Shown one piece after another: positions 21,048-43,600 of a DNA stretch of 64,000 nt. Both the position numbers and the translations under genes were made by a program. The stretch covers positions 1-64,000 of IMG/VR virus record IMGVR_UViG_3300037424_002358; one strand, 5' to 3'. Every line of letters starts with the position of its first letter. Position 1 is the first letter of the stretch. The notes below the pieces were generated by a model. The model was given only the letters and a program-made list of their open reading frames with translations. It searched no databases and was not told the DNA's origin. Origin of the DNA: a virus.

Positions 21048-21325
21048 GGGAGCCTCGGCGGCGTTTGGTCCGGTAGCCGGTGGCCGACCTGGATCTTCAG
21101 CGCGTCGCTCCGGCGCTCTGCCAGTGCGTCAATCTTGGCAGCCTGATCGACGAGCCATCCAGCCGCGGCGCGCATCTGGCCCGAGTCGACCTGGCCGATG
21201 AACTCGCAGGCCGTGACGCGGGCGGTGTTGCCCATGAATCGCAGGACGATGCCGCTGTCGCCCGCCGGCGGCTGATAGCGGGGGTCGAGGCCCCACACAA
21301 CCTGCGGCGTCGTGTCCGCGCTCAC
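21044..21325 (-). CDS. hypothetical protein
   Basis: GTGA-coupled on both sides. Confidence 0.6.
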   Translation of the reverse strand: MSADTTPQVVWGLDPRYQPPAGDSGIVLRFMGNTARVTACEFIGQVDSGQMRAAAGWLVDQAAKIDALAERRSDALKIQVGHRLPDQTPPRLP

Positions 21326-22233
21326 CATCGCCTCCACTCGTCCCACATGAGCATGTGCTGCCATCGGCCCCGGAAGATCGTCTCGTTGACGGGAAGCGCG
21401 AAACCGGAGCGGTTGGCACCGGCCTGCATGCTCCCGCCTACCACATGGTAGCCCCTGGCGGATGGCAGGTAAAGGACTTTCGCGCCGCCCTGCCGGACGG
21501 CGAAGCAGTATTCCATGTCCTCGTAGGTTCCCTTGCCGTAGACCTCGGCGAAGCCGCCGATCTGGTTCCAGAGATTCCGCCTCGTCATGAGGCATGCGCC
21601 GGTCACGGCGGCGACCTCAGCCGGTTTGCTCACGCGCGGATTCTCGGGCGTCCAGCCGATGAAGTGGTGGAAGGTCTTGCCCCGGATGTCGAAGGATATG
21701 CCGGCGTGTTGGACACGCCCCGCCGGGCCGTACTTCGTCCCCTCGGGGAAGATCAGGAGGGGTCCGACCACGCCGACCTGCGGATCGTCGAGTCCGCGCA
21801 CCATAGCCGAGATGGCTCCGGGCATGAGGTAGACATCGGCAGTCAGGATCAAGATCAGCGGCGATACGCCGCGGGCCGCGGCCTTGTTGACCGCCCGTGG
21901 GTATCCCTCGTTCTCCTCAATGCGGAAGAACACGTCGCCGGGCCGTATCCGATCCTTGACGGCGATGGCCTGGTCCTTGGGAAGGATCGTCTTGCCCTCC
22001 GCATCCTGCCAGGCAGGCGTGCCATTGTCGACCACGATCACCCTATAGCCCTCGGGCAGTCCGACCGCGGCCTGCGCTATCGAGTCCAGCGCCTTCTCGG
22101 CCAAGGCCCATTCGCCGAAGATCGGCATGACAATGTCGACGAGCGCCCGGGTGGCGGTCGGCGGCTGTGGCGCTGACTGGACGGCGACCAATGTGCCCTT
22201 GCTCTGCTTTCGGTTGCGCGATCTCTTGCTCAT
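21322..22233 (-). CDS. GT2 family glycosyltransferase
   Basis: VDIVMP, VIVVDNGT, ENEGYPRAVN, AVTGACLMTRR, GGFAE...YEDMEYC. Confidence 0.92.
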   Translation of the reverse strand: MSKRSRNRKQSKGTLVAVQSAPQPPTATRALVDIVMPIFGEWALAEKALDSIAQAAVGLPEGYRVIVVDNGTPAWQDAEGKTILPKDQAIAVKDRIRPGDVFFRIEENEGYPRAVNKAAARGVSPLILILTADVYLMPGAISAMVRGLDDPQVGVVGPLLIFPEGTKYGPAGRVQHAGISFDIRGKTFHHFIGWTPENPRVSKPAEVAAVTGACLMTRRNLWNQIGGFAEVYGKGTYEDMEYCFAVRQGGAKVLYLPSARGYHVVGGSMQAGANRSGFALPVNETIFRGRWQHMLMWDEWRRW

Positions 22234-23495
22234 GGCTGTTCCTCGGGCTGGATGGGGATGGGCCGTGGGATCGTGAGCGGCTCTAGGCCCGGCAGGACGG
22301 GCGGTGGCGGCGGAGCCTCCTTCACCCGGACCCGCTCGATGGCGGCGTCCAAGACATCTCCCGCCGCCTTCCACGTGCGCGAGCGCGCGTAGGCGAGTCC
22401 GCGTTCCACGATGGAGGCGAGACGGGCGTCGCCGCTCGCCTTCCACGCGGCCACGGTCCGCAACTGCTCCGCAGCGCTCTTGGCCGAGGCCCAGGACCGG
22501 ACGGAGTTGCCCCACGGGTCGACATGCTGGTACTCAATCTCGATGGGGAAGCCGCGCGGCACGCTGTTCGTCGGGTAGTCGTCGTAGATTTGTTCTGTGA
22601 CCGCGGTGCAGTCGGTTGCCACCACCGGCAGGCCGCAGGCCATCGCCTCAATCATCGGCATCCCAAAGCCCTCTGCCTTCGAGGGGAGGAGGAACGCGTC
22701 CGCGGTTGCGTAGAGCATCCACAAGCGCTCGAATGCCAACCCGCGCTCATAGGTCATGAGCCGCTCACCGATGCCGAGCGAGTTCGCAAGGTCCGGGATG
22801 ATCCAGCCGGCTGGCGAGGCCAGCCGTGTCACGAGAATCCAGTAGACATCGTTCGTCTTCGCCAGTTCCCGGATCGTCCTGGCCCCGGCCCACAGATTCT
22901 TGCGCTCCTGGTTGTCGGCCACCGTCAGCACGACGAGCGTCGACTCGTCGAAGCCGAGCGCCTTGCGGAGCGCCGTGCGTTCATGCGGCTGCGGCGGGCG
23001 CCAAGAGGCTGTGTCGAGGCCGATGGGGATGAAGTCTCCCGTCAGGCCGGCCTCCTTCAGGCAGTCTAGGCCCCAACGCGAGATGACTAGACGCTCATCC
23101 AGCCCGGCCAGGATGTTCCCCCACGTGGGGCAGACGGGGCCGGACTCGACAGGGAAGAGACCTATGAGCGGGCGGCTGAGGCCCTTTTGCCCGACGATGG
23201 CCCGGATGCGCTCCTGGTAGGGAATGTCAAGCGCGGCCACGACGGCCTCGATGTGCTCGAACTGCCCAGCCTGCGACAGCATGATGAGGTTCTGATACAT
23301 GGCCGACAGGAACATGAACGTCTCGGGGCCGCGGACCGGGATGATGGAAAACGGCCAGTTGTGTTCGTCGCCCTTGTAGCCCATACCGAGCGCGGTGACC
23401 TTGCGCCCGCGCTCAGAGAGTTCGCGACAGAGGGAGATGGACAACTGCATGTAGCCCGACGAGACCATGTCGAAGTCTGAGATGTACAGGATCAC
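22230..23495 (-). CDS. GT4 family (GT-B) glycosyltransferase
   Basis: NQERKN, ADAFLLPSKAEGFGMPMIEAMACGLPVVAT. Confidence 0.92.
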   Translation of the reverse strand: MILYISDFDMVSSGYMQLSISLCRELSERGRKVTALGMGYKGDEHNWPFSIIPVRGPETFMFLSAMYQNLIMLSQAGQFEHIEAVVAALDIPYQERIRAIVGQKGLSRPLIGLFPVESGPVCPTWGNILAGLDERLVISRWGLDCLKEAGLTGDFIPIGLDTASWRPPQPHERTALRKALGFDESTLVVLTVADNQERKNLWAGARTIRELAKTNDVYWILVTRLASPAGWIIPDLANSLGIGERLMTYERGLAFERLWMLYATADAFLLPSKAEGFGMPMIEAMACGLPVVATDCTAVTEQIYDDYPTNSVPRGFPIEIEYQHVDPWGNSVRSWASAKSAAEQLRTVAAWKASGDARLASIVERGLAYARSRTWKAAGDVLDAAIERVRVKEAPPPPPVLPGLEPLTIPRPIPIQPEEQP

Positions 23496-24568
23496 GCGCT
23501 CTCCTCCAGTTTCCCCTTCTCGATCAGCCGCTCCCAATCAGCGGCGATGCGGTTCCAGTCGAAACGGCGGCGCGACGCCACGATCATGTTGTCGCGCTTC
23601 CGGGTGAAGTAGGACTTCTCCTCCGTCATCAACGCCACGATCCGCTGCACGAAGGTCCGCACGAAGCCCGGCTCGGTGGGCGTGCCGAAGACCTGGATGC
23701 CGTATTGGTTGGTCGTCGGCAGCGCGCCGTAGGCGGACGTGACGGGCATGGCGCCGGCGACCTGGCACTCGGCCACGGAGATGCAGAACAGTTCGTCGTA
23801 GGTGCAGGGGTAGGCGTTGATCTGTGCCTTCATCTGTTCCTGGCACAGCGACAGGCGGGGTATCCGCCCCAGGAACTCGACGCCCTTCTCGCCAGCCCAG
23901 GCTAGGCGGTGCTGGTGGTTGTTCGGAGTGCTCAGGCCCCACAGGCGGTAGTCGCTCGTGATGACGAGCGTCGCGTCGGGGACCTCCCGACGTATCAGCG
24001 GCCAGCACGCGTGGAGGACCGGCAGCCCGCGGTCCGGCACCGAGCAGTAGATGAGCCGGTGCGGGATGGGTTCGGGCACGTTCTCGTAGTCTTGCTGGCG
24101 GACGCCGAGATCGAGTGTGACGAGTTTGGATGGCGGCAGGCCATAACGCCCCGCGAGGAATTGCGCGTGGTGGGGCGAAATCGTCACGCACAGGTCGACC
24201 TTCGCCCCCAGTTCCTTGAACGATCCGACGGTGTACTGGTCGGTGCTCCACCAGATAAGCCTCGTCCAGGTGCGGTCCTCGAAGCGCACCCGAGCGTTGG
24301 GGCTTCGGAAGATGATGAGCGCGTCCCGCTGGACCCGGTTGTCGTAGGCCGCCAGCGGCAGGAACTCGACGCCTTCGTGGACGCCCGCAGGCTGGGGATC
24401 GTTGAACACCCGCACGTCGTGGCCGCGCGCCGCCAGCGTCGTGACCAGCGACAGCATGGCGAGTTCGGCGCCCCCGACGCCCCGCCCGTAGATGTCGGGC
24501 GGCGTCACGCCGAGGGGCGAGCCGTCGTTGCAGAGTAGGTCTATGCGCATGGAACCGCCATCAGCCAT
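23492..24568 (-). CDS. GT4 family (GT-B) glycosyltransferase
   Basis: GVGGAE, YCSVPDRGL, YPCTYDELFCISVAECQVAG. Confidence 0.9.
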   Translation of the reverse strand: MADGGSMRIDLLCNDGSPLGVTPPDIYGRGVGGAELAMLSLVTTLAARGHDVRVFNDPQPAGVHEGVEFLPLAAYDNRVQRDALIIFRSPNARVRFEDRTWTRLIWWSTDQYTVGSFKELGAKVDLCVTISPHHAQFLAGRYGLPPSKLVTLDLGVRQQDYENVPEPIPHRLIYCSVPDRGLPVLHACWPLIRREVPDATLVITSDYRLWGLSTPNNHQHRLAWAGEKGVEFLGRIPRLSLCQEQMKAQINAYPCTYDELFCISVAECQVAGAMPVTSAYGALPTTNQYGIQVFGTPTEPGFVRTFVQRIVALMTEEKSYFTRKRDNMIVASRRRFDWNRIAADWERLIEKGKLEESA

Positions 24569-24611
24569 AGGTCAAATCTCCGCTCTAATGGTACTCCGAT
24601 ACTGGCACCGC

Positions 24612-24640
24612 TTGACATTGTACCGCATGCGGTATAAGAT
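24612..24640 (+). promoter_or_regulatory. sigma70-type promoter with perfect palindromic operator
   Basis: TTGACA-17-TAAGAT; TACCGCATGCGGTA at 24621-24634. Confidence 0.9.
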
Positions 24641-24665
24641 GGTAGACGGAAGGAAGGGAGGGACG

Positions 24666-25259
24666 ATGACACACCCGAGCGAGACGCCTGAGTATTGGGA
24701 GCGACTTGCCTCCGAGGAACGCAAGTTTGCGGAGCAGGACCGACGCACTCGTGCGACTGTCGAGAGCATCCGCATACACGAGAGCAACGCGACGGAGTAT
24801 GAGGCTCGGGCCAGGAGCCTTCGTGCGGGACCGAGCGAAGAGGACGTGCAGAAGGCCATCCAGCAGGTCAAGGCCGAGTTGGAAAGCCCCGGCTTCGCCG
24901 AGGCGCTGTCGTCCATCAAGTCGGGGGCGATCCGTCCCTCCGGGGCCATCTACATCCCCGGACGAATTGTCGAATTCTCGTGGGGCTACGATCAGACGAA
25001 CATTGACTACTACCTCATCACCCGCCGGACCGACAAATTCGTTACCCTCCAGAAGATCGGTTCCAAGGATGTCTCTCGGCCCGACTCGCCGTGGGCCACG
25101 GGGCAATCCGTTCCCGACCCGGACAACGTCCTGCCCGACAAGCCGATCCGCCGCAAGGTTCAGGTGTGGGATGGCAAGGAGCAGGGCGTCGCGATTGAAT
25201 CCTACGGGTGGGCAAGTCTGTGGGACGGCAAGCCGAGCAACTGGACCGCTTACGCCTAG
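24666..25259 (+). CDS. hypothetical phage protein
   Basis: GGAGG RBS; contains SWGYDQTNIDYY segment. Confidence 0.8.
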   Translation: MTHPSETPEYWERLASEERKFAEQDRRTRATVESIRIHESNATEYEARARSLRAGPSEEDVQKAIQQVKAELESPGFAEALSSIKSGAIRPSGAIYIPGRIVEFSWGYDQTNIDYYLITRRTDKFVTLQKIGSKDVSRPDSPWATGQSVPDPDNVLPDKPIRRKVQVWDGKEQGVAIESYGWASLWDGKPSNWTAYA

Positions 25260-25595
25260 CAGGAGGGCGACCATGCGTTTCACGCTGACTGCATCCGACA
25301 ACGCGACGTTCGCGGGGATTGAACACACGACCTTCCGCGACAAGATTTTCCCCGTCAACTTCAAGGCGGGCTTCCCGCTGTTCCTCATCCGCGAAGCGTG
25401 GAACCGCGGCACATCTTTCGAGGACCTCGCCGACGGCTTTGGCGCGGGCCTCGGCACGTGCGGGGGCGACTGGTCGGGCATCCGCGACTCAAGCCCCTCG
25501 GCAAAGACCGCCATGCTCGAACGGGCACTCAACGCTCTATTCCCCGCGGTGGACTCATGACGGCAAGCCGAGCAACTGGAACCGCCTACGCTTGA
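25224..25595 (+). repeat. direct repeat pair flanking one gene
   Basis: gacggcaagccgagcaactgga identical at 25224-25245 and 25559-25580, with imperfect extension. Confidence 0.85.
25273..25560 (+). CDS. hypothetical protein
   Basis: AGGAGG RBS, ATG at 25273 (MRFTLTASDN...). Confidence 0.75.
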   Translation: MRFTLTASDNATFAGIEHTTFRDKIFPVNFKAGFPLFLIREAWNRGTSFEDLADGFGAGLGTCGGDWSGIRDSSPSAKTAMLERALNALFPAVDS

Positions 25596-25607
25596 AGGGA
25601 GCCTGAC

Positions 25608-26189
25608 ATGACCAGAAAAACATGCTGGTGCTGTAGCAAAGAGGAAGAGGTCTTCGAGAGCGAACTGTGCTTCCCATGCTGGTCGTGGGCGGAAACGCAC
25701 CTCCAGAGCGGGGCCAGCGAACAGGCCATCCGGCTGGCGTGGCGCGAAGCCCATCCTGATTTCAAGACCGTTCAGACGCAGATCGGTCCGGCGAAAGTCC
25801 GCGCCGTCGCGCCGAACGAGGTGAACGTCGAGATCGCTCCGTTCACCCTGAACGGCATCGCCTACAACCGGGTCTACATCGCCGCCAATCGCAACAACGC
25901 AGGTGCATTCCTGTGGCGTGTGTCGAGCGCCGTCTATCTGAGCCGCGAAACCGGCGGGGATGGTACGGACAAAGCCCGCCGAGCCGTCTACGATGCGGCG
26001 CTTTTCGCCGCGGCCGAGGCGACGAAGGACGACGAGCGGTGGCTGACCGTCGGCGCGGCCACGCATTTCGACAGAGAGATTGAGCACCACCGCCGGAAGA
26101 TTCAGGATGAGGGCGAAGAGATTGAGCGGCTCGTCGAGGCGCAGAGGACGTTTCTCCGTGCAAAACTGATTGAGGAGGTGCAGAGATGA
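25608..26189 (+). CDS. hypothetical protein, N-terminal Cys cluster
   Basis: CWCC...CFPC; GGAG RBS. Confidence 0.75.
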   Translation: MTRKTCWCCSKEEEVFESELCFPCWSWAETHLQSGASEQAIRLAWREAHPDFKTVQTQIGPAKVRAVAPNEVNVEIAPFTLNGIAYNRVYIAANRNNAGAFLWRVSSAVYLSRETGGDGTDKARRAVYDAALFAAAEATKDDERWLTVGAATHFDREIEHHRRKIQDEGEEIERLVEAQRTFLRAKLIEEVQR

Positions 26190-26362
26190 AGGGCCAACTT
26201 CCGGCGCGACATGCCATCCGAACGATCCGCACATTCTGGTGCAAGCGGCACGTCTACGACGGTCGCGGGCGATACCTAGTGTCCACGCCCGACAATCCGA
26301 CGACCTGCCGCCAATGCCTTGCCGCGATGAAGCGGGCCGGTCATCAGCCCGGAAGCCTCTAG
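26186..26362 (+). CDS. small Cys/His protein (58 aa, below ORF-track cutoff)
   Basis: GAGGAGGT RBS, ATGA coupling; MKGQLPARH...WCKRH...TCRQC. Confidence 0.65.
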   Translation: MKGQLPARHAIRTIRTFWCKRHVYDGRGRYLVSTPDNPTTCRQCLAAMKRAGHQPGSL

Positions 26363-26371
26363 GAGGAAAAT

Positions 26372-26713
26372 ATGAAGCGCGAACCGAAACTCCCGACGGT
26401 CTACGAATCGCTCGACGACGATCAGCGCAAGGGACGCGGTGCTGTGCCCGCCCTGCCCGAAGTATGGTGGGTGAACGACTCGGGCGTGGCGCACACAGTC
26501 GCCACGGATGCGGTCCTGATCCCTCTGGAGGCAAAACACAAGGGCGAAGGGGTATTCTCCTTCCGGCCCGTGGGCGCGCAGGGTAGCCGCCCCGCCACGA
26601 TCCGGTCAAACGCGCCCGCGATCCTGCGGGTGTGGCGCGATCTCGCCAAGGCTGGCTACCAGCCCACGACGAAGCGCAACTATCAGGCCACGCTGCGACG
26701 CATCGCGGCGTAG
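26372..26713 (+). CDS. hypothetical protein
   Basis: AGGAGG RBS; last gene of the plus-strand island. Confidence 0.7.
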   Translation: MKREPKLPTVYESLDDDQRKGRGAVPALPEVWWVNDSGVAHTVATDAVLIPLEAKHKGEGVFSFRPVGAQGSRPATIRSNAPAILRVWRDLAKAGYQPTTKRNYQATLRRIAA

Positions 26714-26729
26714 GCACCCTTCCTTCCGC

Positions 26730-26758
26730 ACCCTGCCGCCCTGGATGGGCGGCAGGGT
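26730..26758. terminator. hairpin between convergent transcription units
   Basis: accctgccgccc-tggat-gggcggcagggt, 12-bp stem. Confidence 0.7.
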
Positions 26759-26763
26759 CGCGC

Positions 26764-28104
26764 CTACCGGAAGAAGTCATGGAAACTCTCAATCATGAAG
26801 TCGAGCATCGGCTTTGACAATCCCGGCCAGCAACCGATCCACAGGGTCCTCTCGGCGATGATGTCGGAGTTGCGCAGGTCGCCGTGCACCCGCCAGAAGG
26901 ACGCGTAGGGGCGATAGGCTGGCTGCCGCAACAGGTTGCCCCCGAACAGGAGCCGCGTCCCGATCTTCCGCTCCGCCAGGAACCGCAGGAGCGCCGGGCG
27001 CCGGGCCTCCCGCAGTGTGATCGGGAACCCGAACCAGGATGGCCGCGAGTTGGCCGTCGCCCTCGGGAGCATCAAATGCTCCTCGAGATCGCGTAGGCCG
27101 TCGGCCAGGATGGAGAAGTTGCCGACCCTCGCCGCCGTGAAAGCGGTCAGGCGCTCCAACTGCGCCACGCCGATCGCCGCCTGGAGATCCGTGGACTTCA
27201 GGTTGTATCCGATGGCGCTGTAGACGTACTTGTGGTCGTAGGCCTCCGGCAGGCCGTCGAAGTCCCACTCGAAGCGCTTGCCGCAGGTGTTCTCCTTCCC
27301 TGGATCGCACCAGCAGTCCCTCCCCCAGTCCCGCAGGCTCTCGAGGGCCTTCCGGTAGGAAGCGCTCCGGGTCAGCACGGCACCACCCTCACCCGTCGTG
27401 ATCTGGTGGGCCGGGTAGAACGACTGCGTCGCCGCCAAGCCGAAGGAACCTGTCAGGTGCTCGCCGTATCTCGATCCCAGGGCGTCGCAGTTATCCTCAA
27501 TCAGCGTCACGCCTAGACGATCAAAGGCGTCGAGCATATCGAGCGGAAGCGGGTTGCCGAGGGTGTGCGCCATGAAGACCGTGCGAATGTCGCGGCGCTC
27601 GTGCAATGCGTCCAGGATCATCTGCTTGGAGGGGACGTACGTTTCCAGTTCAACGTCGACGAAGACTGGCTGAAGGCGATTGTGGAGGATCGCGTTCAGG
27701 GTAGTTGGAAATCCCGCGGCCGTTGTGAGCACGCTTGCGTTGTCTTTGATCGGCTCCCACTTCATCCGCGGCAAGCGCAGCGCCGCCATCGCCAGCAGGT
27801 TCGCCGACGAACCAGAGTTCACCATTGAGGCGTGGCGCACGCCGACGATCTCCGCCAGCCTGCGCTCGAAGGCGTCCACCCATGGCCCCTCGGTCAGAAC
27901 ATTCTCGAGGAGGGCCATGACCGCGCGGGTGATTTCGCCGCGGCCGATGATCTTGCCGCTCGGGGGGATCGGCGTGTCGCCAGCCACGAATGGGCGCGGC
28001 TCGAAGTAGCGGTCGGCGAAGTCGCCCGCGGCGTTGGCAATCTCGGCGACCTCGCTGAGTCGCCGGCCCTCCTCCTCGCCTATCGAAAGAAGTCCTGCGA
28101 CCAT
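26764..28104 (-). CDS. rfbH: CDP-4-keto-6-deoxyglucose 3-dehydratase (E1, RfbH/DdhC)
   Basis: SFYPAHQITTGEGG (His in place of the PLP lysine), EDNCDALG, CWCDPGKENTCGKRF Fe-S motif, YDHKY. Confidence 0.92.
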   Translation of the reverse strand: MVAGLLSIGEEEGRRLSEVAEIANAAGDFADRYFEPRPFVAGDTPIPPSGKIIGRGEITRAVMALLENVLTEGPWVDAFERRLAEIVGVRHASMVNSGSSANLLAMAALRLPRMKWEPIKDNASVLTTAAGFPTTLNAILHNRLQPVFVDVELETYVPSKQMILDALHERRDIRTVFMAHTLGNPLPLDMLDAFDRLGVTLIEDNCDALGSRYGEHLTGSFGLAATQSFYPAHQITTGEGGAVLTRSASYRKALESLRDWGRDCWCDPGKENTCGKRFEWDFDGLPEAYDHKYVYSAIGYNLKSTDLQAAIGVAQLERLTAFTAARVGNFSILADGLRDLEEHLMLPRATANSRPSWFGFPITLREARRPALLRFLAERKIGTRLLFGGNLLRQPAYRPYASFWRVHGDLRNSDIIAERTLWIGCWPGLSKPMLDFMIESFHDFFR

Positions 28105-28547
28105 GCGAACTCCACTCCCGCGGCCTCGGCCGCTCCGTAATCCTCCGGCCTGTCGCCGACGAACAGCGTGTCTTCCAGGTCGGCCCCCGCCTTGCGCAGG
28201 ATCTCCAGGAGCATGCCCGGCTTCGGCTTCCGGCAGTCAGCGTCCTTCGTGTACTCAGGCAACAGCCCTTCCGGGTGATAGGGGCACAACTCGTAGAACT
28301 CCGCCCCGATCATACGGGCCGCGTTCTCTACGAGGGCGCGCGCCTCCTCCTCGGTCAGCATGCCCATCGCCACGCCGCCCTGATTCGATGCCACCGCCAG
28401 AGTGTGACCAGCGGCCCGCAGCGCTTCGCACGTTTCAACGACCAAGGGCATCGGCGTCTGCTGCTCAGGGAAGCGGACCCATCCCTCCGGGTCGTTTGGC
28501 CCCCGGTAGACAAGCGTACCGTCCATGTCGAAGATGAACAGGCTCAT
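28080..28547 (-). CDS. GmhB-like HAD IIIA sugar-bisphosphate phosphatase
   Basis: FDMDGTL, SNQGG, CPYHP...CRKPKPGM, VGDRPED. Confidence 0.88.
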   Translation of the reverse strand: MSLFIFDMDGTLVYRGPNDPEGWVRFPEQQTPMPLVVETCEALRAAGHTLAVASNQGGVAMGMLTEEEARALVENAARMIGAEFYELCPYHPEGLLPEYTKDADCRKPKPGMLLEILRKAGADLEDTLFVGDRPEDYGAAEAAGVEFAWSQDFFR

Positions 28548-31401: not shown

Positions 31402-31532
31402 TTGCCCCTCGCCGCGCGCTTCCAGACATGTTTGGGCATGTACATCCATAGACCGTTCTTTACCCGCGCCCTGGCCTCATGCGCCGGAACCCTCTCAACG
31501 ATGCCGGTTCGCCTGCTCTTGATGGTCTTCAC
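31398..31532 (-). CDS. small basic protein (44 aa)
   Basis: coupled on both sides; MKTIKSRRTGIVERV...WMYMPKHVWK. Confidence 0.6.
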   Translation of the reverse strand: MKTIKSRRTGIVERVPAHEARARVKNGLWMYMPKHVWKRAARGK

Positions 31533-35973: not shown

Positions 35974-36372
35974 CTACCACCATCTTCTGCTCTTGGTCGC
36001 GTGCATGCCGGTCCCGTAGTTCGTGAGCGTGTCCTGGTAGACGTAGCAGACCAGGAGTTGTTCCGCGATCTCACTCTCATGGCCCCGAGCCTCTTTGGGC
36101 GAGATCATGACCGCGGGCGATCCGCACGTGCACATGGCGAACCAGCGCCCGATCTTGCCCTTCAGCCACTCGGGGTCGAGGAACAGGAAGTGCTCTCCGT
36201 GATAATCCGCGCACTTGACCCTGCGCCAGATGCCGTCCTGATCCTGGAAGAACAGGAACGGTTCCTTCTTGACCACATCCCCCGAGGCGAGGGTGGCTGT
36301 CGTCGGGTCGCCCCGGTGGCGGATGATATTGAACGTCATGTTCCGCCACTTGACGCTCGGGTCTGTCTTCAT
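35974..36372 (-). CDS. hypothetical protein
   Basis: ATG at 36372 coupled to the upstream stop; Cys/His cluster. Confidence 0.65.
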   Translation of the reverse strand: MKTDPSVKWRNMTFNIIRHRGDPTTATLASGDVVKKEPFLFFQDQDGIWRRVKCADYHGEHFLFLDPEWLKGKIGRWFAMCTCGSPAVMISPKEARGHESEIAEQLLVCYVYQDTLTNYGTGMHATKSRRWW

Positions 36373-37493
36373 AGCGACACCACCATGTAGGCCCACACCA
36401 GTTTGGAGATCACGTGCAATCCTTGATCGAGGTAAGCGTTCCGCCTCGGGATTGAGTCGGCGGCGACGGCCCACACCAGTTTGGAGATCACGTGCAATCC
36501 TTGATTGAGGTAAGCGTTCCGCCTCGGGATTGAGTCGGCGGCGAAGTGCACGACGAATTCGAGCATCCCGATTTCGATTCGTCCCGTCGCCAGCGCGACG
36601 GCACCGGCGTGCACGAGACAGTGGGCCGACATCCAGAACCACCACGGCGCGCCACCCTCCTGCACTCTGACGGGGCGTTTGAACTGCCTCATCTTGTCCG
36701 TCTGAAAGACAAAGTCGGCCAGCGCGTGGCCCACCAGTAGCCAGAACAGAACCTCAGCAAAGTCAAGCACCGTGTCGGACCTCGCGATTTCTCTGGGTCC
36801 CACGATCACTTGGTCCGCGCTGGCCAGCGCTCGACGCACGCCTGTCGGCTCGGGCGAGGGCGTGACGGTCGCGGACGGAGCCGCGGTCGGCGTCGAGAAG
36901 GGCAGATTGGCGGGATAGTCGAAAGTGAGCACGTTCCTCTCGAACCACGTCGCCAAGGACATGCCTGGCACGCCGCCCACGTTGCCCTCGACACGCACGT
37001 CCACCCACGGCAGAGTCAGGCCACCGAGGCGCTTCGCCGTTTGGTAATCGACCTCGATAGCGAGCCTCCGCACCAGGATGTATTCGTAGAGGCCCGACCT
37101 CCCCGAGCAGTCGACAACCAGGAGCGGCCCGTACCAGTCCCCGCCCGGAACGCGGACGTAGGCACTCATCCCGATGTCGCCGCAGCCCATGAGCGCCGCG
37201 CCGCCCTTGAAGCCCCCGAGGCCCATCCCTCGGTTGCCGGCGACCCGCTCCATGATGCCGTCGGCGTATGAGGACATCGCCCCGCTGAAATACTGCGGGT
37301 GGCTGAAGCGTGCCGTCTCGTAGGTCACCATCCCCGGCACGCAGTAGCCCTCGAACAGATAGCCATTCTCCTTGATGTCGTCGGCGCAATCGACCGACCA
37401 CGGCACGGACAGCGGAGTGGGCGTGGGCGCGGGCGTGGCCGAAGGCGTCGGCGGCGTCAGGCCGACGATGAGGGACAGGATAAGCGCCAGCAT
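36369..37493 (-). CDS. secreted DPBB-like protein in frame with a DUF3307-like membrane domain
   Basis: signal peptide, PT-rich linker, GPLLVVDC domain; then GHALADFVFQT...AHCLVH...DQGLH; internal GTG at 36770 with GAGGT RBS. Confidence 0.7.
   Translation of the reverse strand: MLALILSLIVGLTPPTPSATPAPTPTPLSVPWSVDCADDIKENGYLFEGYCVPGMVTYETARFSHPQYFSGAMSSYADGIMERVAGNRGMGLGGFKGGAALMGCGDIGMSAYVRVPGGDWYGPLLVVDCSGRSGLYEYILVRRLAIEVDYQTAKRLGGLTLPWVDVRVEGNVGGVPGMSLATWFERNVLTFDYPANLPFSTPTAAPSATVTPSPEPTGVRRALASADQVIVGPREIARSDTVLDFAEVLFWLLVGHALADFVFQTDKMRQFKRPVRVQEGGAPWWFWMSAHCLVHAGAVALATGRIEIGMLEFVVHFAADSIPRRNAYLNQGLHVISKLVWAVAADSIPRRNAYLDQGLHVISKLVWAYMVVSL
36390..36544. repeat. 78-bp-period tandem duplication
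   Basis: 36390-36466 vs 36468-36544, one mismatch; duplicates AADSIPRRNAYL[N/D]QGLHVISKLVWA. Confidence 0.95.
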
Positions 37494-37496
37494 CGC

Positions 37497-38177
37497 TCAG
37501 GCTGGGTCCGGGGCTTCGACGGCTAGGCATGCCTCACCCTCGCGCTTCAGGAGGAGGTCGAGGTCCGGGTAGGATAGGTATGCGTGACCGTCCCGCCCCC
37601 ACGACCGGCCCCAACTGTTCTTGATGCGAACCATCCGCGTGATCTCGTTCACACCGTTGGCGACATACGCGTGCCCGCCGACAGTGAAGCCCCGGACGTG
37701 GACCACGCCGAAGATGTCAGGCGTCATCATGCCATCCATCCAGTCCGTCCCCAGGACGACCGGCCCGAAGTGCTTGATCGTGTCAATCACGTCGCGGGCG
37801 CTCCATCCCCAACGGTACTCCATGATGAGTCCGCGGGCCGCGAGGCCCTTCGCACCGCCACGGACCGACGAGCCTTCGTAGTCGGAGCCGGCCCACTCGT
37901 CGTTCTCCTGAGCCAGGTGATAAAGTTCGACGGGGTCCGCCTGTGCGGCGTGCGTGATGGGTCCGTCGCAGAGCCAATGCGACCAGGAGTAACCGACGCA
38001 CATCGGCGTCTCGCCCTGATCGTTCCAGCATCCGCCGTCCCACCAGTAGCGCCAGAGGCGGAAGGGCCGTGGCCTACGTTCGAGCAGCGCACGCATCGTC
38101 CACAGCCGATCTCGGCTGTCCGGTGCCACCCGCCGCCCCATGCCGTACCCCATGGAATCATCGCGTCTGACTCGCAT
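37497..38177 (-). CDS. papain-like C1 cysteine peptidase
   Basis: DQGETPMCVGYS, GGHAY, IKNSWGRSWGRDG. Confidence 0.9.
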   Translation of the reverse strand: MRVRRDDSMGYGMGRRVAPDSRDRLWTMRALLERRPRPFRLWRYWWDGGCWNDQGETPMCVGYSWSHWLCDGPITHAAQADPVELYHLAQENDEWAGSDYEGSSVRGGAKGLAARGLIMEYRWGWSARDVIDTIKHFGPVVLGTDWMDGMMTPDIFGVVHVRGFTVGGHAYVANGVNEITRMVRIKNSWGRSWGRDGHAYLSYPDLDLLLKREGEACLAVEAPDPA

Positions 38178-38179
38178 GC

Positions 38180-38419
38180 CTACATCTCCCTCTGGTCAGA
38201 GTGCCTTGCGCGCCGCCGCTCGCGCCGATTCTCATGCCGCCTAATGCTACAGCCCAGGCAACTACAACCCAGGCCGCGCACGCTGGCACGGCGGCCAACA
38301 TCGCGTGGCGTCAGCGGGAACGGAGTCGGCATCATTCGGTTGTACATCTGGAGCAACCGCAGAGCGCGGGACTTCGAGCGCCAGTCGTGATGCCTGCGAA
38401 AGTCCCGCGTGCGATTCAC
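38180..38419 (-). CDS. small basic protein
   Basis: GTGA-coupled; CSCLGC motif. Confidence 0.6.
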   Translation of the reverse strand: MNRTRDFRRHHDWRSKSRALRLLQMYNRMMPTPFPLTPRDVGRRASVRGLGCSCLGCSIRRHENRRERRRARHSDQREM

Positions 38420-39237
38420 CCCGTATCCTCCAACGGCGTCAGGGCAATGATAAACCGCGCCTGGCGCCAGTAACTCACCTTCGGATTCGACTCCTCGCCG
38501 CCTAGCCGTAGCCCACAGAAGAACAGGGTCAGCACATCCGTCCTCGGCAGGACGGCGAAGCCCGACTCAGGATAGTTGTAGGCGAGGTACTCAATCATGT
38601 CGCCCACATGGGTTGAGAGACGGTCAACCTGATCGGGGGCGATCCGCACCACGGCCACGATCTGCGACCGTGAGGAACGCCTTGCCTGCATCAGCAGGAC
38701 CTCGGTCCCGAGCAACTTGTCCAGGACCGCCTCAGCGTCCCCCACGGTGCGTAGGTAGCCCCTCCCGTCCCTCTCGACGTATTCCTGTAACGGCGAGGCC
38801 GTTTGGTCTAGGCCGGAGTGCAGCCACAGCCCCACCCGGCCTGCGTCATCGAGCCACGCGAGGGCTGTGCCAGCCCCCAGGTCGAAGATTCCGCTACTCA
38901 GGGCATCCGGGGTCCAGATGTGCGGCGTGAACGGCTCCAGCAAGGCTAGGCCGTCGAAGGCCGTGACAATCTGCCCTCCCCCCGACATGTCGAGTCCGTC
39001 GTAGAGCCATGGGTTGGGGATCGGCGTCAGTGTCGGCGCGGCCGCAGTCGCCGGCTGCGGCAGGAACGGCGTGATCGTCGGCGTCGCGCTCGCCTGAAAC
39101 CTCAAGGTCATCTCGACACGCTCAGGTTCCGAGCGCCGTGGACCATAGATGCTCCAGGCGAGCGCGACTAGACCAGCCACCGTCAGGCTGGCCCCCGCGA
39201 TCAACAGGATAGGCGCGATCTCATCGGTGCGCGGCAC
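38416..39237 (-). CDS. sortase-like transpeptidase
   Basis: N-terminal TM + PT linker; WLHSG, LTLFFCG, QARFIIAL give the His-Cys-Arg order; start uncertain. Confidence 0.65.
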   Translation of the reverse strand: MPRTDEIAPILLIAGASLTVAGLVALAWSIYGPRRSEPERVEMTLRFQASATPTITPFLPQPATAAAPTLTPIPNPWLYDGLDMSGGGQIVTAFDGLALLEPFTPHIWTPDALSSGIFDLGAGTALAWLDDAGRVGLWLHSGLDQTASPLQEYVERDGRGYLRTVGDAEAVLDKLLGTEVLLMQARRSSRSQIVAVVRIAPDQVDRLSTHVGDMIEYLAYNYPESGFAVLPRTDVLTLFFCGLRLGGEESNPKVSYWRQARFIIALTPLEDTG

Positions 39238-39835
39238 GTCCGCGCATACCCCAGAAGCCGACGGCGGCGCCAGCCAGGGTGATAAGCGCACCCACGATCA
39301 TTGCCGTCAGGTCAGCGCCGCCAGTCGGCGGGTGCCTCGGCGGCTTGCGCGTCGGCGTGGGTGTCACGCATTGTCCGTCCACGCAGGGGTCAGCCGTGTC
39401 CGTGGGCGTCACGCATTGGCCCTCACATGGATCGGTCGTGACCGTCGCGGTCGGCGTCTGAGAAGACTCAGACTCCGTCGGCGTTACCGTTGGCGAAGGA
39501 GTCGAAGTCGGCGGTTTCGTCGGCTTCGGAGTCGGCGTCACCTCATGGCGATAGGACCAGTGGCTTAGGTCGCAAGCATCCTCATCGCCAACCTGCTGCT
39601 CGACCTTGTCAAACGACCCGAGCGTCAAGTATCCCTCGCAGCCCTGACTGTTGTCGCTTCCCCCTTTGCCGCAGTATTCAACGGCACCGTTGACCTCCTC
39701 CAAGGGCGGGTCCTGATGCTCAGACCATCCATCCGCCCCATGCGGGCAAACAGTCTCGCCCGTCGCGCCCGCCGTCAATGCCGCGACTAGCAGAACCGCA
39801 AGCGCCAGAACCGTAGCCATCCCTATGCGTTTCAT
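39221..39835 (-). CDS. cell-wall-anchored surface protein (PxTG sorting signal)
   Basis: signal peptide MKRIG...AGA; Cys-containing domain; PT-rich stalk; HPPTGG + hydrophobic helix + RGRAAHR tail. Confidence 0.8.
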   Translation of the reverse strand: MKRIGMATVLALAVLLVAALTAGATGETVCPHGADGWSEHQDPPLEEVNGAVEYCGKGGSDNSQGCEGYLTLGSFDKVEQQVGDEDACDLSHWSYRHEVTPTPKPTKPPTSTPSPTVTPTESESSQTPTATVTTDPCEGQCVTPTDTADPCVDGQCVTPTPTRKPPRHPPTGGADLTAMIVGALITLAGAAVGFWGMRGRAAHR

Positions 39836-40191
39836 CCTCTCCTCGCTTTCTTGCAGTTGGCGAGCCGATTGTCCTCGGCCCGCATCGATTCCGTTGCCTC
39901 CTGCATGATCGCCGCCTGATAGTCGGCCTGCTCGACCCACCTACCGATCATGTCTGTTACCGCGCTCAGCGTCTCGGGCCTCATCTCGCTGCTCGCCGCC
40001 ATGATGACGGTCTGCAAGTCGCCGATGATGTCCTTCTCCTTCAACACCGAACCCATCAGCCGCCTCGTCGTCCTGACATAGATCGCAAGCCTAGTTTCGA
40101 GCGACCGCATGAACTCCTCAATATCGGCCACTAGGTCTCCGACATCCGGCTTGCGCTTCAAGCCCGCCGGCCAGCCTGCCTCGGCGTTCAC
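39832..40191 (-). CDS. hypothetical protein
   Basis: coupled on both sides; helical. Confidence 0.65.
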   Translation of the reverse strand: MNAEAGWPAGLKRKPDVGDLVADIEEFMRSLETRLAIYVRTTRRLMGSVLKEKDIIGDLQTVIMAASSEMRPETLSAVTDMIGRWVEQADYQAAIMQEATESMRAEDNRLANCKKARRG

Positions 40192-41105
40192 AGGACTCTA
40201 GCCTCCCTCAGCAGTTGATCGACGCGGGCATCCCAGGTGTGCGGGGCGACGGCGAGCCTTGCCCTTTCGCCCAATTCCGATGCCTCCTTCGGGTGGTCCA
40301 GCAGCCATACCACGTTGGCGCAGGCCTCTCCCTCAGTCGTGAACGAAAGGAAGTCGCGGCCCTCCTGGAACATCTCGGCTAGGTCGGGCACGCGGTTGAG
40401 GACGGGCGCGATCCCGAACGCCATGACCTCGAACACGCGTGCCGTTGTATCCTGCATGCTCGACCAGTTCAGCCCCACGCGCGTCGAATGGTAAATCCGC
40501 TTCGCGTCGTCGTAGGCCGGCCCGAGTTCATAGGCGACCTTCTTGCCGAGCCGCCGGAGGTGGTCCACAAGCAGGTTGCGGTTCGGATAATGGAGGCCGA
40601 GTAGCGCCGCATCGTATTCGCGCTCCGCGAACGGGATCGCCGTGGGTGAGTGCCACACCGGGTCGTAGCCGTACGGGAGCCATCGGTCACCGGGCTTGAG
40701 ATAGGGCTTTTGCATCCCGAAGAAGAGGTCGGCCTTCTCGCGGGCCTTCGCGTAGTCGAGCACGTGCGGGTCGGTGCCGACGACGATGTACTTGCAGGAT
40801 GGCCGACCATAGGTCGTCAGCCCGGCGTTGGCCTCAATCCACACGTCGGCCTGCCAGGGCATTGACTTCTCGACGAGCGCGTACATCATCTCCGGCCGCG
40901 GCCCGATGCTCATGGGCAGATCGGGCCGGTGGACGTAGGACATGGGCAAGTGCATGCCCGTCCCGCCGCCCCACGGAATCCAGCGCCCGCTGTAGGGTCC
41001 GGCGGTATACAACTCCACGTCCGAGCGGCGCCGCAGGGCCTCGAAGATGTAGCGCCCCATTGCGACCGGGTACCAGATGGTGGAAAAGCCGACCCGGATC
41101 GTCAT
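40188..41105 (-). CDS. CgeB-like (GT-B) glycosyltransferase
   Basis: WLPYGYDP, YPNR, VGLNWS...TARVFEVMAFG, HTWDARV. Confidence 0.85.
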   Translation of the reverse strand: MTIRVGFSTIWYPVAMGRYIFEALRRRSDVELYTAGPYSGRWIPWGGGTGMHLPMSYVHRPDLPMSIGPRPEMMYALVEKSMPWQADVWIEANAGLTTYGRPSCKYIVVGTDPHVLDYAKAREKADLFFGMQKPYLKPGDRWLPYGYDPVWHSPTAIPFAEREYDAALLGLHYPNRNLLVDHLRRLGKKVAYELGPAYDDAKRIYHSTRVGLNWSSMQDTTARVFEVMAFGIAPVLNRVPDLAEMFQEGRDFLSFTTEGEACANVVWLLDHPKEASELGERARLAVAPHTWDARVDQLLREARVL

Positions 41106-41674
41106 GCCTTCACCGCCGCGAAGATGCGCACCGGCTCGGGAAGCGTGATCGGCGTCAGCCCGTAACGATGGACAGTTGGCCCGATCACGTCGTCGTCGAT
41201 CTCCGGCTTCCAGCCCTCGCCGACATCCTGCGGCACTGCGCCGTAGTAGTCGTGCACCGCGATCACGTCGCCGGGCCGCAACACGGGAGCGTAGAACGGG
41301 AACTCCATCGCCTTCTCGCCGTTGTCGCAGTAAATCATGGCCGTCTCCGAGGATCGGTCAACAAATTTGTGCACCCCCCCGCGCATGTCTTCCGTCAGGC
41401 AGTCGCCGGCGACGAACTCGAAGCCCGCATACAGCCGACTGAGTCCGGCGACGGCGTGGCTGATCTGCGGGTTGATCTCGACCGCCATGTACTCGAAGCC
41501 CTTGAAGGCCATGATCGGCGTGACGACCGCCGTCAGCCCGCCCACGTGGACGCCCAACTCGACGAACCGCCGGACGTCGTAGCGGTTGATGAGGTCGAGG
41601 ATCACGCCGACCTCAATCCACGTGTGGCCCACCAGCAGGCCGTAGGGGTCAATCTTGAAACGGTTGAGCGCCAT
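41102..41674 (-). CDS. CmcI-like class I O-methyltransferase
   Basis: FVELGVHVGG, YCDNG, LRPGDVIAVHDY. Confidence 0.8.
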   Translation of the reverse strand: MALNRFKIDPYGLLVGHTWIEVGVILDLINRYDVRRFVELGVHVGGLTAVVTPIMAFKGFEYMAVEINPQISHAVAGLSRLYAGFEFVAGDCLTEDMRGGVHKFVDRSSETAMIYCDNGEKAMEFPFYAPVLRPGDVIAVHDYYGAVPQDVGEGWKPEIDDDVIGPTVHRYGLTPITLPEPVRIFAAVKA

Positions 41675-41798
41675 CAGAGCCTCTCCCGGTTACACTGTCC
41701 GGGTCGTCGTCCCTGCGCCTCTCGGTCGGGCGACCGCTTTGCCCAGCGACGATGCTGTCTAGCCCCCGACTGTCGTTCTCTTCGCTGTTATTTGGGCA

Positions 41799-41874: not shown

Positions 41875-41880
41875 TCGCTC

Positions 41881-42072
41881 CTAGAGTTCGGGGATCTTCA
41901 GGACCATGCCGGGCTTGATGATGTAGGGGTTCCCCCCGATCACATCCTTGTTGGCGTCATAGATGCGCTTCCAATGCTCCTGACCGCCGGGACCGTAATA
42001 CTTGAGGGCAATCAACCGGAGCGAGTCGCCAACGAGCACCGTGTGTTCCCTGACCTTCTTGTCCTCGTCCAC
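41881..42072 (-). CDS. stand-alone LysM domain protein
   Basis: HTVLVGDSLRLIALKYYG...WKRIYDAN...IKPGMVLKIP. Confidence 0.9.
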   Translation of the reverse strand: MDEDKKVREHTVLVGDSLRLIALKYYGPGGQEHWKRIYDANKDVIGGNPYIIKPGMVLKIPEL

Positions 42073-42081
42073 CTTCGCCTC

Positions 42082-42786
42082 CTATGGTCTCTTGGGGGTA
42101 TTCGGGAGTTCCCATTTCTGCGCAAACAGCGCGCGCATGCGGACCGTCTGCTCCATGCGCTCGGGCGTGTAGCCGATCGTTCCGGCGGACGCGTGCAACA
42201 GTTGCAGGCCCGGCATCGGCACGATGGGGATGTTGGCGGCGCGCGCCTTCATCCCCAGATCGACATCTTCGTAGTCGTTCGGCCAGAAGCGCGGGTCGAA
42301 TCTCTGCAACTCGTTCCACACCGCGCCCGGCGCAGCCAGGAAGTAGCCCATCGGGTAGCGGAACGTCACCCCGCCAAAGACATTCCAGCCCGCCGGCCAG
42401 TCCACCATCTTATGGCAGATGAGCGCGCGAGGGGACGCGCGGAACGCCTCATCCAGGGCTGACAGGAAGTCCCCCCCGATCTGCACGTCATCCGAGAGGC
42501 AAATCCAGATGTCGCCCTCGGCCTCGTCCATTGCATGGTTGAACCCCTGACCGAATCCGCGGTTGGGGTCGAGCCGCAATGTCTGCACCGTGAAGCGCGC
42601 CGCCAGGCCGAACGATGCGGCCACCAGCGAGGCCTCGCGGTTGGGGCTACCGTTGTCGCAGACGACGACCTCAAACGACGGATCGTCTCGACCCGCGATG
42701 TAGCCGTCGATCTCCGCGAGGCGTGCTTGGAGCAGATCGGGCTTCGTGTAGGTCAGGATGAGAATACTAAATCTAGGGGCTGGCAC
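42082..42786 (-). CDS. GT2 family glycosyltransferase
   Basis: FSILIL, EVVVCDNGS, NRGFGQGFN, FDPRF...YEDVDL. Confidence 0.9.
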   Translation of the reverse strand: MPAPRFSILILTYTKPDLLQARLAEIDGYIAGRDDPSFEVVVCDNGSPNREASLVAASFGLAARFTVQTLRLDPNRGFGQGFNHAMDEAEGDIWICLSDDVQIGGDFLSALDEAFRASPRALICHKMVDWPAGWNVFGGVTFRYPMGYFLAAPGAVWNELQRFDPRFWPNDYEDVDLGMKARAANIPIVPMPGLQLLHASAGTIGYTPERMEQTVRMRALFAQKWELPNTPKRP

Positions 42787-43600
42787 CTTCGGCCTCCCGC
42801 AGGGCTTTCAGGCCCTCCTGTGGTCCGTAGATCGGCACGTTCATGGCCTTTGCTCGATCTACCAGGAGACCCCCCCGCAGGGGCCGCATGGCTGTTCCCC
42901 ACGGCTTGTCCGTCGGGCGGACGAGCGCGGGGTCGGCGCCAAACGCTTCGGCGATGGCTTGGCACCATGCGAAGCGGCTGATCGTGGCGTCGCCGGCGAC
43001 GTGCAGATGGTGCAGCGACAGGTCAAGTCTACCAGAAAACGCCTCCGCAAGCCACAGCAGGGCCTCCACAAGGTGCGGAATATAGGTCGGCGTCACGAAC
43101 TGGTTGGCAGGCATCTCGACCGGCATGCCGAGTTCCAGTTGGTCACGCGTCCGCCGGACAAAGTCCGAACGCTGTCCCGGCCCATACAGGTCGAGCGTGC
43201 GTATGACGAGGGTCGGCTGACGCACCTGAGCCGCCGCCTCGCCGCCCAACTTCGTCATCCCATAGAAGTTGAGCGGTGACGGCACCGCATCCTCCTGGTA
43301 CGGACCCTCGTTGCCGAAGACGTAGCCCGTGGAAATGTGGAGTAGCAGGCCTCCGAAGGCCCGCCGCACGTTGCCTGGCCCGCGGGTGTTGACAAGCACG
43401 GCCCGCTCCCGGTTCTCGCGTTGCTCGGCTCCATCCACGTCGGAGTAGGCCGCGGCGTTGACAATCGCGTCGAGGCCGATCGGGATTGCCTCACCGAGTT
43501 GGGCTGGGGCTAGCGTGATGTCGGCCACGATGGCTTCGCAGCCTGCGGCTACGAGCGCGCTTCCCAGACGCCCCCGGGGACCCGTGACGCCGATTCGCAC
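42773..43600 (-). CDS. RmlD-like NDP-4-ketosugar reductase
   Basis: VTGPRGRLG, NAAAYSDVDGAE, HISTGYVF, PLNFYGMTKLGGE, TPTY. Confidence 0.88.
   Translation of the reverse strand: MRIGVTGPRGRLGSALVAAGCEAIVADITLAPAQLGEAIPIGLDAIVNAAAYSDVDGAEQRENRERAVLVNTRGPGNVRRAFGGLLLHISTGYVFGNEGPYQEDAVPSPLNFYGMTKLGGEAAAQVRQPTLVIRTLDLYGPGQRSDFVRRTRDQLELGMPVEMPANQFVTPTYIPHLVEALLWLAEAFSGRLDLSLHHLHVAGDATISRFAWCQAIAEAFGADPALVRPTDKPWGTAMRPLRGGLLVDRAKAMNVPIYGPQEGLKALREAEGASP

Follow-up and report, generated by a model that had tools for sequence, protein, structure and literature searches.

A conserved glycosyltransferase core between the capsid and head-tail adaptor genes of an uncultivated phage lineage: a candidate system for virion protein glycosylation

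Why would a tailed phage keep a large set of sugar-handling genes in the middle of its virion structural operon? The question is raised by positions 21322-43600 of IMG/VR record IMGVR_UViG_3300037424_002358, an uncultivated phage; the window analyzed here is the record's first 64 kb. An original prediction, made by inspection of the DNA, saw in this stretch a self-contained glycan-building system with six glycosyltransferases (GTs), plus a seventh at 55843, and proposed that the phage makes rare activated sugars and assembles a methylated glycan on cytoplasmic virion proteins. We find that five of these GTs belong to a core whose order, from the capsid gene to the adaptor gene, is shared by related phages, and judging from gene content and position we lean towards the view that the conserved core glycosylates virion proteins.

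Hidden Markov model (HMM) searches with Pfam, NCBIfam and PHROGs profiles found all seven GTs, with weak scores for the GT2-like gene called GT2w and for the seventh. In the direction of transcription, the GTs and the genes that frame and accompany them are as follows, with ORF standing for open reading frame.

55843-56631, minus strand: displaced GT2-like gene, GT2c (phrog_13126, E 8.5e-6; PF00535, 16.6 bits)
45911-47098, minus strand: major capsid protein (MCP) candidate, the upstream border of the cluster
44519-45829, minus strand: virion structural protein of phrog_1645 (E 2.4e-90), a possible glycan acceptor
43603-44424, minus strand: Pro-rich ORF, no family match, true start probably internal
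42773-43600, minus strand: RmlD-like nucleoside diphosphate-4-keto-sugar reductase, core (PF04321, 126 bits)
42082-42786, minus strand: GT2 enzyme GT2b, core (PF00535, 44.6 bits), in all relatives examined
41102-41674, minus strand: putative class-I methyltransferase (PF13578, Methyltransf_24, 17.8 bits, below cut-off), a weak match
40188-41105, minus strand: CgeB-like GT, core (PF13524, 70.3 bits, cut-off 25)
35974-36372, minus strand: small Cys/His protein with a CTCG motif, core, which follows the CgeB-like GT in relatives
34828-35973, minus strand: weak GT2-like gene, GT2w (PF00535, 23.7 bits, cut-off 23.3)
31529-32164, minus strand: S-adenosylmethionine (SAM) methyltransferase, Methyltransf_11 (PF08241, 52.8 bits), in most relatives
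23492-24568, minus strand: GT4 enzyme GT4b, core (PF13439 and PF13692)
22230-23495, minus strand: GT4 enzyme GT4a, core (PF00534, 56 bits), in all relatives
21322-22233, minus strand: GT2 enzyme GT2a, core (PF00535, 47 bits), with 4-nucleotide (nt) overlaps on both sides
20352-21047, minus strand: head-tail adaptor (phrog_442, E 3.4e-5), the downstream border

The cluster thus lies where it had been placed, between capsid and head-tail connector, with the MCP candidate and the phrog_1645 gene upstream and the adaptor and a tail-completion gene downstream. The RfbF, RfbG-like, cupin, RfbH, RmlD-like, HAD phosphatase, NTP-transferase and methyltransferase genes that had been named were likewise detected by HMM, some of them weakly or below cut-off. 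The expected translational coupling is confirmed: the genes are co-oriented and tightly packed, with 4-nt overlaps at ~14 of 29 gene junctions and a continuous chain of such overlaps running through GT4b, GT4a, GT2a, x21044 and the adaptor. A 2.2-kb plus-strand island interrupts the run. Terminator-like sites in the stretch are no commoner than in shuffled sequence. The CgeB-like GT match spans PF13524 profile positions 25-143 of 144, and the RmlD-like gene scores 126 bits against TIGR01214, under the cut-off of 224.

Comparison with related phages, one of the checks that the original prediction had proposed, strengthens our reading. Searching IMG/VR with the MCP candidate brought up 19 loci of 54-83% identity, the full capsid-to-adaptor interval was fetched for four longer records, and all window proteins were mapped onto the relatives. 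GT2b, the CgeB-like GT, GT4b, GT4a and GT2a occur in identical order in every one of the 7 relatives that span MCP to adaptor, and in all 7 the trio GT4b, GT4a, GT2a directly precedes the adaptor, whose homologues end the cluster. These relatives have a GC content of 38-59%, genomes of 67-103 kb and an MCP-adaptor interval of 7.5-17.5 kb. Most of them add the RmlD-like reductase, the Cys/His protein (C81, C83, C109, H61 and H124 are invariant in its alignment), a GT2c homologue and the Methyltransf_11 gene, and shorter loci with enough downstream sequence show a cluster that begins alike. The best conserved GT is the CgeB-like one (36-59% identity in all relatives); GT4b shares 37-52% identity across all relatives, GT2c is 32-41% identical to genes inside the relatives' clusters, and GT2w has homologues in relatives L014, L016 and L031. 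Mean pairwise identity is 33-44% for the GTs vs 36% for the adaptor. In Mantel tests on 8 genomes, GT4b (p 0.006), GT2a (p 0.014) and the adaptor (p 0.008) co-diverged with the MCP. Because the core is kept in the head operon across phages of very different base composition, we favor a virion-linked target. Such varied base composition probably implies very different hosts, which a host-specific surface polymer fits less well.

The enzymes themselves look soluble. A Kyte-Doolittle scan of the GTs and sugar enzymes showed no transmembrane segments, and no GT came out as a multi-pass protein, in line with the predicted solubility. Searches of the complete genome for Bac_transf, Glycos_transf_4 (WecA/MraY-type) and Polysacc_synt (Wzx) gave no match while control genomes were positive, so the predicted lack of a flippase and an initiating transferase stands for these families. 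Lipid-carrier and serotype-conversion machinery was not found in the locus, where hydropathy scans showed no multi-pass protein, GtrA, Wzy and ABC-transporter HMMs lying outside the search. The broader claim that the phage has no membrane glycan enzyme holds within the window, however, a GT87 protein is encoded at 106.4 kb of the genome.

What sugars might this machinery use? A block of nucleotide-sugar genes sits between the Methyltransf_11 gene and GT4b:

30649-31449, minus strand: glucose-1-phosphate cytidylyltransferase-like, RfbF-like (TIGR02623, its best match, 247 bits, cut-off 300)
29657-30757, minus strand: NDP-hexose 4,6-dehydratase, an RfbG-like short-chain dehydrogenase/reductase (PF01370, 163 bits)
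29155-29676, minus strand: cupin isomerase/epimerase, FdtA/RmlC-like (PF05523, 35 bits; PF00908, 24 bits)
28544-29158, minus strand: NTP-transferase-like, weak NTP_transf_3 (PF12804, 25.9 bits, cut-off 27)
28080-28547, minus strand: HAD-IIIA phosphatase, GmhB-like (TIGR01662, 73 bits, above cut-off)
26764-28104, minus strand: RfbH/E1, CDP-4-keto-6-deoxyglucose 3-dehydrase (NF011936, 536 bits, cut-off 423)

RfbH is the strongest single enzyme assignment in the cluster. Its alignment with Yersinia E1 (PDB 3BCX, 431 bits) is full-length, and it keeps the active-site His (YPAH), which replaces the PLP-binding Lys, and the C-x-C...C Fe-S cysteine motifs of 3BCX. The 4,6-dehydratase scores 141 bits with TIGR01181 (dTDP-type) vs 126 bits with TIGR02622 (cut-off 278), both below cut-off, and for the HAD-IIIA phosphatase the GmhB models score under cut-off. 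The set of RfbF-like, dehydratase, cupin and RfbH genes is found only in relatives L031, L032 and L016, and partly in L018 and L033; NTP-transferase-like homologues occur in L016 and L010. RfbH requires an E3 reductase, with Fer2 and FAD/NAD-binding domains, but a search of the complete genome for PF00175 and PF00111 found neither. With E3 missing and the rare-sugar module present in only some relatives, the description of the system as self-contained does not survive. Compared with the Salmonella/Yersinia pathway to CDP-3,6-dideoxyhexoses (RfbF/DdhA, RfbG/DdhB, RfbH/DdhC as E1 and DdhD as E3), the phage shares E1 with adjacent cytidylyltransferase-like and 4,6-dehydratase genes, but it lacks E3, its first two enzymes fall under equivalog cut-offs, and the genes are in a head operon rather than an O-antigen locus.

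Further sugar genes lie outside the window. At 91055-92080 on the minus strand, a GDP-mannose 4,6-dehydratase (361 bits) starts the long minus-strand block and is a second deoxysugar entry point. At 106447-111271 on the plus strand there is a second carbohydrate locus, which encodes a multi-pass GT87 (GT-C) protein together with an NTP_transf_3 protein and a polysaccharide pyruvyl transferase. Its target is probably the envelope, and GT87 is missing from five relatives.

We hypothesize that the core is transcribed together with the late head genes and that the CgeB-like GT would prime a Ser or Thr of an assembled or assembling virion protein, by analogy with CgeB acting on CgeA. Candidate acceptors would be the capsid protein, the phrog_1645 protein, the Pro-rich protein and tail proteins. 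The GT2 and GT4 enzymes would then lengthen the glycan in the cytoplasm with no lipid carrier, and the methyltransferases may cap its sugars. The variable module (RfbF-like, dehydratase, cupin and RfbH/E1) is predicted to supply a CDP-6-deoxy- or CDP-3,6-dideoxy-hexose, with the HAD phosphatase and NTP-transferase joining the sugar module in this phage, the RmlD-like reductase contributing, and a host reductase perhaps standing in for the missing E3. Of the originally proposed scheme, soluble GTs of a late operon acting on cytoplasmic virion proteins, this remains the best reading and is strengthened by the lineage-wide synteny; the glycan is the part that we infer.

Virion glycosylation by phage GTs is already established; in the present phage the enzymes are unrelated, the set is much larger, and it comes with its own nucleotide-sugar synthesis. 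PMC11600133 and PMC12619734, which cite Freeman et al. 2023, describe capsid and tail-tube subunits that are modified by mycobacteriophage GTs and an O-methyltransferase, and Che8, Corndog and Myrna are among the glycosylated mycobacteriophages. The resemblance lies in tandem soluble phage GTs that come with a methyltransferase and are linked to structural genes. The differences are that the GTs are unrelated in sequence, that there are 6-7 here vs ~2-3 there, and that in this lineage the capsid-adaptor placement is general and nucleotide-sugar genes are included. None of the 50,697 GenBank phage records searched matched the CgeB-like GT, and GT4a gave weak partial matches only, none to a mycobacteriophage. 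Chloroviruses encode their own soluble GTs, nucleotide-sugar enzymes and sugar methylation, and host membrane pathways are not needed. For its crust sugars, B. subtilis uses the RfbF/RfbG-like YfnH and YfnG. Chloroviruses, which are giant viruses, are described as having autonomous capsid glycosylation (PMC5408694); they differ from the present phage in being eukaryotic viruses with unrelated enzymes and capsid. CgeB, the namesake of the best conserved GT, glycosylates Thr112 of the spore-crust shell protein CgeA (PMC13577073). The B. subtilis spore crust (CgeB/CgeD; PMC13577073) is alike in using a PF13524 GT and GT2 enzymes in the cytoplasm on a self-assembling shell with no lipid carrier, but that system is a cellular one confined to sporulation, and the phage has no homologue of its acceptor CgeA. 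Serotype-conversion (GtrABC) and O-antigen/capsule (Wzx/Wzy) loci share with this cluster the presence of phage-borne sugar enzymes, whereas no membrane GT, flippase or initiating transferase was found in it.

How secure are the possible acceptors? The MCP candidate has extreme codon bias, with a G+C content at third codon positions (GC3) of 0.92, and its ESM Atlas features match SU10_MCP clusters at 0.98. It had no Pfam or PHROG match, a profile search against PDB sequences was empty, and an AF2 model from a 13-sequence alignment was too poor for searching (predicted local distance difference test score, pLDDT, of 41). A tblastn search of phage records with the MCP candidate returned no matches. 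In cyanophages and HMO-2011, homologues of the phrog_1645 protein bear the annotation of virion structural protein, and in the nearest relative a Pro/Glu-repeat protein takes the place of the Pro-rich ORF at 43603-44424. We noted that [S/T]-G-[S/T] occurs more often than expected in two large tail proteins at 8289-13874 (17 observed vs 2.6 expected, and 8 vs 2.1) and in the phrog_1645 protein (5 vs 1.1), with the MCP not enriched. The enrichment is strong, but it may reflect fibre repeat structure and not a sequon, and it was not used as evidence. Relative L014 carries two tandem MCP paralogues around a phrog_1645 gene (8543-12397).

The stretch also holds genes of a different kind. An ~8 kb insert at 32.2-39.9 kb carries lysis and envelope genes, a LysM gene sits apart from it, and an island runs on the opposite strand:

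41881-42072, minus strand: small LysM-domain protein (PF01476, 26.9 bits), not in relatives
39832-40191, minus strand: 119-aa ORF, the first insert gene, no family match, not in relatives
39221-39835, minus strand: secreted protein with a Thr/Pro stalk, HPPTGG, a transmembrane helix and a basic tail, sorting-signal-like in its translation
38416-39237, minus strand: membrane-anchored sortase-fold protein (AF2 pLDDT 72) with an N-terminal transmembrane helix
38180-38419, minus strand: Arg-rich 79-aa ORF, no family match
37497-38177, minus strand: peptidase (phrog_16701, E 3e-49; faint papain-like PF00112, 17 bits)
36369-37493, minus strand: secreted or lipoprotein-like protein with a C-terminal DUF3307 membrane domain (PF11750, 25.8 bits; phrog_2470)
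33176-34831, minus strand: endolysin-like protein with an unassigned N-terminal domain, M23 and SH3 (PF01551, 71 bits; PF08239, 35 bits)
32161-33159, minus strand: LCP (LytR-CpsA-Psr) lipoprotein (PF03816, 71.5 bits; TIGR00350, 67.3 bits; both above cut-off)
24492-26713, plus strand: island of four opposite-strand ORFs (GC3 0.75-0.81), not in relatives

The endolysin-like protein matches endolysin PHROGs. The LCP belongs to a small, phage-borne subfamily in which R90, D92, R115, D116, R214, R216, R225 and R227 are invariant, and it has a lipobox (LLASGC) whose Cys15, also invariant, stands in place of the usual transmembrane anchor. In five other IMG/VR phages (L023-L027, at ~7800-12200) an LCP gene belongs to a module of constant layout that follows the tail-fibre genes and has no GTs close by, in the order M23-SH3 endolysin, small transmembrane protein, LCP, DUF3307 lipoprotein and small transmembrane protein; the DUF3307 gene thus adjoins LCP in all five. 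This looks like a lysis-cassette layout, with the LCP as an accessory possibly acting on wall-polymer linkages, and our literature search found no paper on a phage-encoded LCP. For the sortase-fold model, all 25 Foldseek PDB matches at E <= 0.001 were sortases (target-normalised TM-scores 0.4-0.62). H140, C241 and R261 are invariant and in that order, an observation from the alignment and not from superposing catalytic residues on a solved sortase. The protein itself has no Pfam family at E <= 0.01, and 0 of 7 homologues carries a precomputed Pfam domain. An unrelated IMG/VR phage, L038, has a sortase-like gene beside an HPGTG-transmembrane-RRR protein (6611-8627), without an LCP. Together the HPPTG and HPGTG pairs suggest, from models and motifs, a phage sortase with an HPxTG sorting motif.

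In the relatives this interval contains neither the endolysin nor the sortase pair, and the LysM protein, the HAD phosphatase and the plus-strand island are missing from it as well; no relative examined has an LCP between MCP and adaptor; in the nearest relative LCP lies ~16 kb past the adaptor, outside the GT cluster. The LCP, the endolysin, the sortase-fold enzyme and its substrate are extracytoplasmic. Because the LCP module and the sortase pair recur apart from GTs, we regard the insert genes as separate cell-wall tools. On this comparison of gene order, the layout of the window would be explained by three insertions, at the junctions of the CgeB-like GT with the Cys/His protein, of GT2w with the methyltransferase and of RfbH with GT4b, plus a shift of GT2c to 55.8 kb. 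The insert and the plus-strand island would accordingly be separate insertions outside the glycan machinery, and with them and the LysM protein lying in the stretch, the idea of one single system has to be given up. In relative L034 (38% GC) a GH25-like lysozyme gene sits between the MCP and RmlD-like genes (13115-14023); lysis genes therefore recur in this inter-module place. The first island ORF matches phrog_37844, and a near-consensus sigma70-like site lies at 24612-24640 at the island; transcription toward GT4b may start anew from a minus-strand site at 26820-26792. A 735-aa ORF at 24585-26792 on the minus strand is probably non-coding, with a GC3 of 0.61 vs 0.76-0.89 for well-supported cluster genes.

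Could this mosaic be an assembly artifact? The phage DNA is present in several sediment metagenomes, and Logan contigs from 4 sediment runs cover the stretch without differences and span the insertion junctions. Because these independent contigs bridge the junctions without differences, we take the mosaic to be real and not a chimera. The sole Logan assembly break is a tandem duplication within the DUF3307 gene, of ~23 residues, at 36419-36515.

Several points weigh against glycosylation of virion proteins by the core. Gene identities, order, coupling, solubility, synteny across the lineage and the absence of the lipid-carrier enzymes were computed here; we infer which protein accepts the glycan, which donors are used, when the genes are expressed and that a glycan is made. 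Position, codon bias and the language-model match are the whole basis for the MCP, which stays a candidate, and no Ser/Thr-rich C-terminal extension was found in it. Mycobacteriophage glycans are at C-termini, and no C-terminal acceptor tail is evident in this phage. The core GTs are non-homologous to the mycobacteriophage enzymes in sequence searches. In the Mantel tests on 8 genomes, GT2b, GT4a and the CgeB-like GT showed no significant co-divergence with the MCP. Lastly, the phage clearly invests in envelope glycobiology, with its LCP, sortase-fold protein, GT87 and pyruvyl transferase.

That investment is the starting point for a different explanation, in which the soluble GTs and rare sugars alter a cell-wall or lipid-linked glycan by way of host initiating, flipping and ligating enzymes, changing receptors for superinfection exclusion or so that progeny do not re-adsorb to debris. 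RfbF/G/H and RmlD-type genes are classic surface-polysaccharide genes, O-antigen GTs of the cytoplasmic face are likewise soluble or peripheral, and LCP, the membrane GT87, the pyruvyl transferase and the GDP-mannose dehydratase are all at hand. However, an initiating transferase and a flippase are missing from the genome, the envelope enzymes are in other modules or transcription units that are not conserved with the GT core, and the order of GTs beside the capsid gene is constant from 38 to 65% GC, where hosts and polymers are probably very different. We therefore consider remodelling of the host surface unlikely, while keeping it as the most serious competitor. Modification of DNA bases, or synthesis of a small-molecule glycoside unrelated to the virion, fits far worse. 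Phage GTs often glucosylate DNA (reviewed in PMC12619734) and several DNA methylases are encoded in this genome, but the genes are in the head operon and not among replication genes, and 5-7 GTs with deoxysugar and methylation enzymes surpass known sets. No base-hydroxymethylase came up when the larger ORFs outside the cluster were scanned with Pfam, which was not a dedicated search. We think this explanation highly improbable.

The insert genes suggest a further route. Actinomyces oris offers a precedent, in that GspA, a substrate of sortase, is glycosylated there by LcpA (PMC6381275); by analogy the phage LCP would move a glycan onto the Thr/Pro stalk of the HPPTG protein, which the sortase-fold enzyme would anchor to the wall. 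As in the LcpA-GspA-SrtA system, the genes for an LCP, a sortase-type enzyme and a protein with a sorting signal are a few kb apart; the LCP scores above cut-off, retains the conserved Arg/Asp residues and carries a lipobox, the sortase fold has an invariant His, Cys and Arg, and the adjoining substrate has HPPTG, a transmembrane helix and a basic tail, a pair conserved in L038. The phage LCP, however, belongs to an endolysin-linked lipoprotein subfamily, the motif is HPxTG and not LAxTG, and in other phages the three genes are not found together: the five with LCP pair it with an endolysin and holin-like genes and have no sortase pair, and L038 has the sortase pair and no LCP. LCP also requires a polyprenyl-pyrophosphate-linked donor, which no enzyme of the phage makes or flips, and the relatives that retain the GT core have none of these genes. 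We regard such a pathway as quite unlikely. A complete viral LcpA-GspA-SrtA-type pathway, in which a glycan with phage-made CDP-deoxysugars is placed on the HPPTG protein outside the membrane and the divergent sortase links that protein covalently to the wall, operating alongside cytoplasmic glycosylation of the capsid, is to our minds more doubtful still. Glycosylation of virion proteins by the conserved core thus remains the reading we favor.

Which phage is this? The record totals 111,962 bp with direct terminal repeats, its CheckV completeness is 100%, its GC content is 65%, and between 6.7 and 92 kb nearly every gene is on the minus strand. There is no close GenBank phage (terminase identity <=37%, no DNA match), and by megablast the 23-kb stretch had no counterpart among phage records. 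An MCP-profile search aimed at the host reached short contigs of metagenome-assembled genomes (MAGs) only, from Anaerolineae, Bathyarchaeia and Anoxychlamydiales, and no prophage was found in 400 sampled genomes from the phylum of the Anaerolineae MAG. The structural genes follow one another along the minus strand, beginning with the terminase:

74.6 kb, minus strand: terminase, first in the structural order
71938-74547, minus strand: 869-aa ORF, no family match, candidate portal by position only

After the portal candidate come a 2647-aa ORF, several head genes, a 699-aa protein and the MCP candidate, and then the phrog_1645 protein, the glycan stretch, the head-tail adaptor, the tail-completion gene, and tail and large fibre genes. 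The head module includes a protease/scaffold gene at 47194-49293. Among the head-region genes are a B12-binding radical SAM enzyme (59375-60763, minus strand), which could C-methylate sugars or peptides, and a 429-aa protein with a ChaB domain at its N-terminus (49771-51060). Elsewhere the genome encodes a BCS1-like AAA ATPase (76469-77620), an RtcB RNA ligase (81448-82578) and a C5 cytosine methylase (88557-90521).

Glycans on virions affect particle stability, adsorption and recognition. If the core does glycosylate virion proteins, this would be the most elaborate particle glycosylation seen in a tailed phage, with 5-7 GTs, methylation and its own supply of rare sugars, and it would characterize an entire uncultivated lineage instead of being a sporadic accessory. 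Virion glycosylation would then reach beyond mycobacteriophages, in parallel with giant-virus capsids and the spore crust, and the locus would offer a defined enzyme set for protein glycosylation that is independent of a lipid carrier. The phage LCP lipoprotein of lysis cassettes and the sortase-fold enzyme with its HPxTG substrate may, for their part, be new cell-wall tools.

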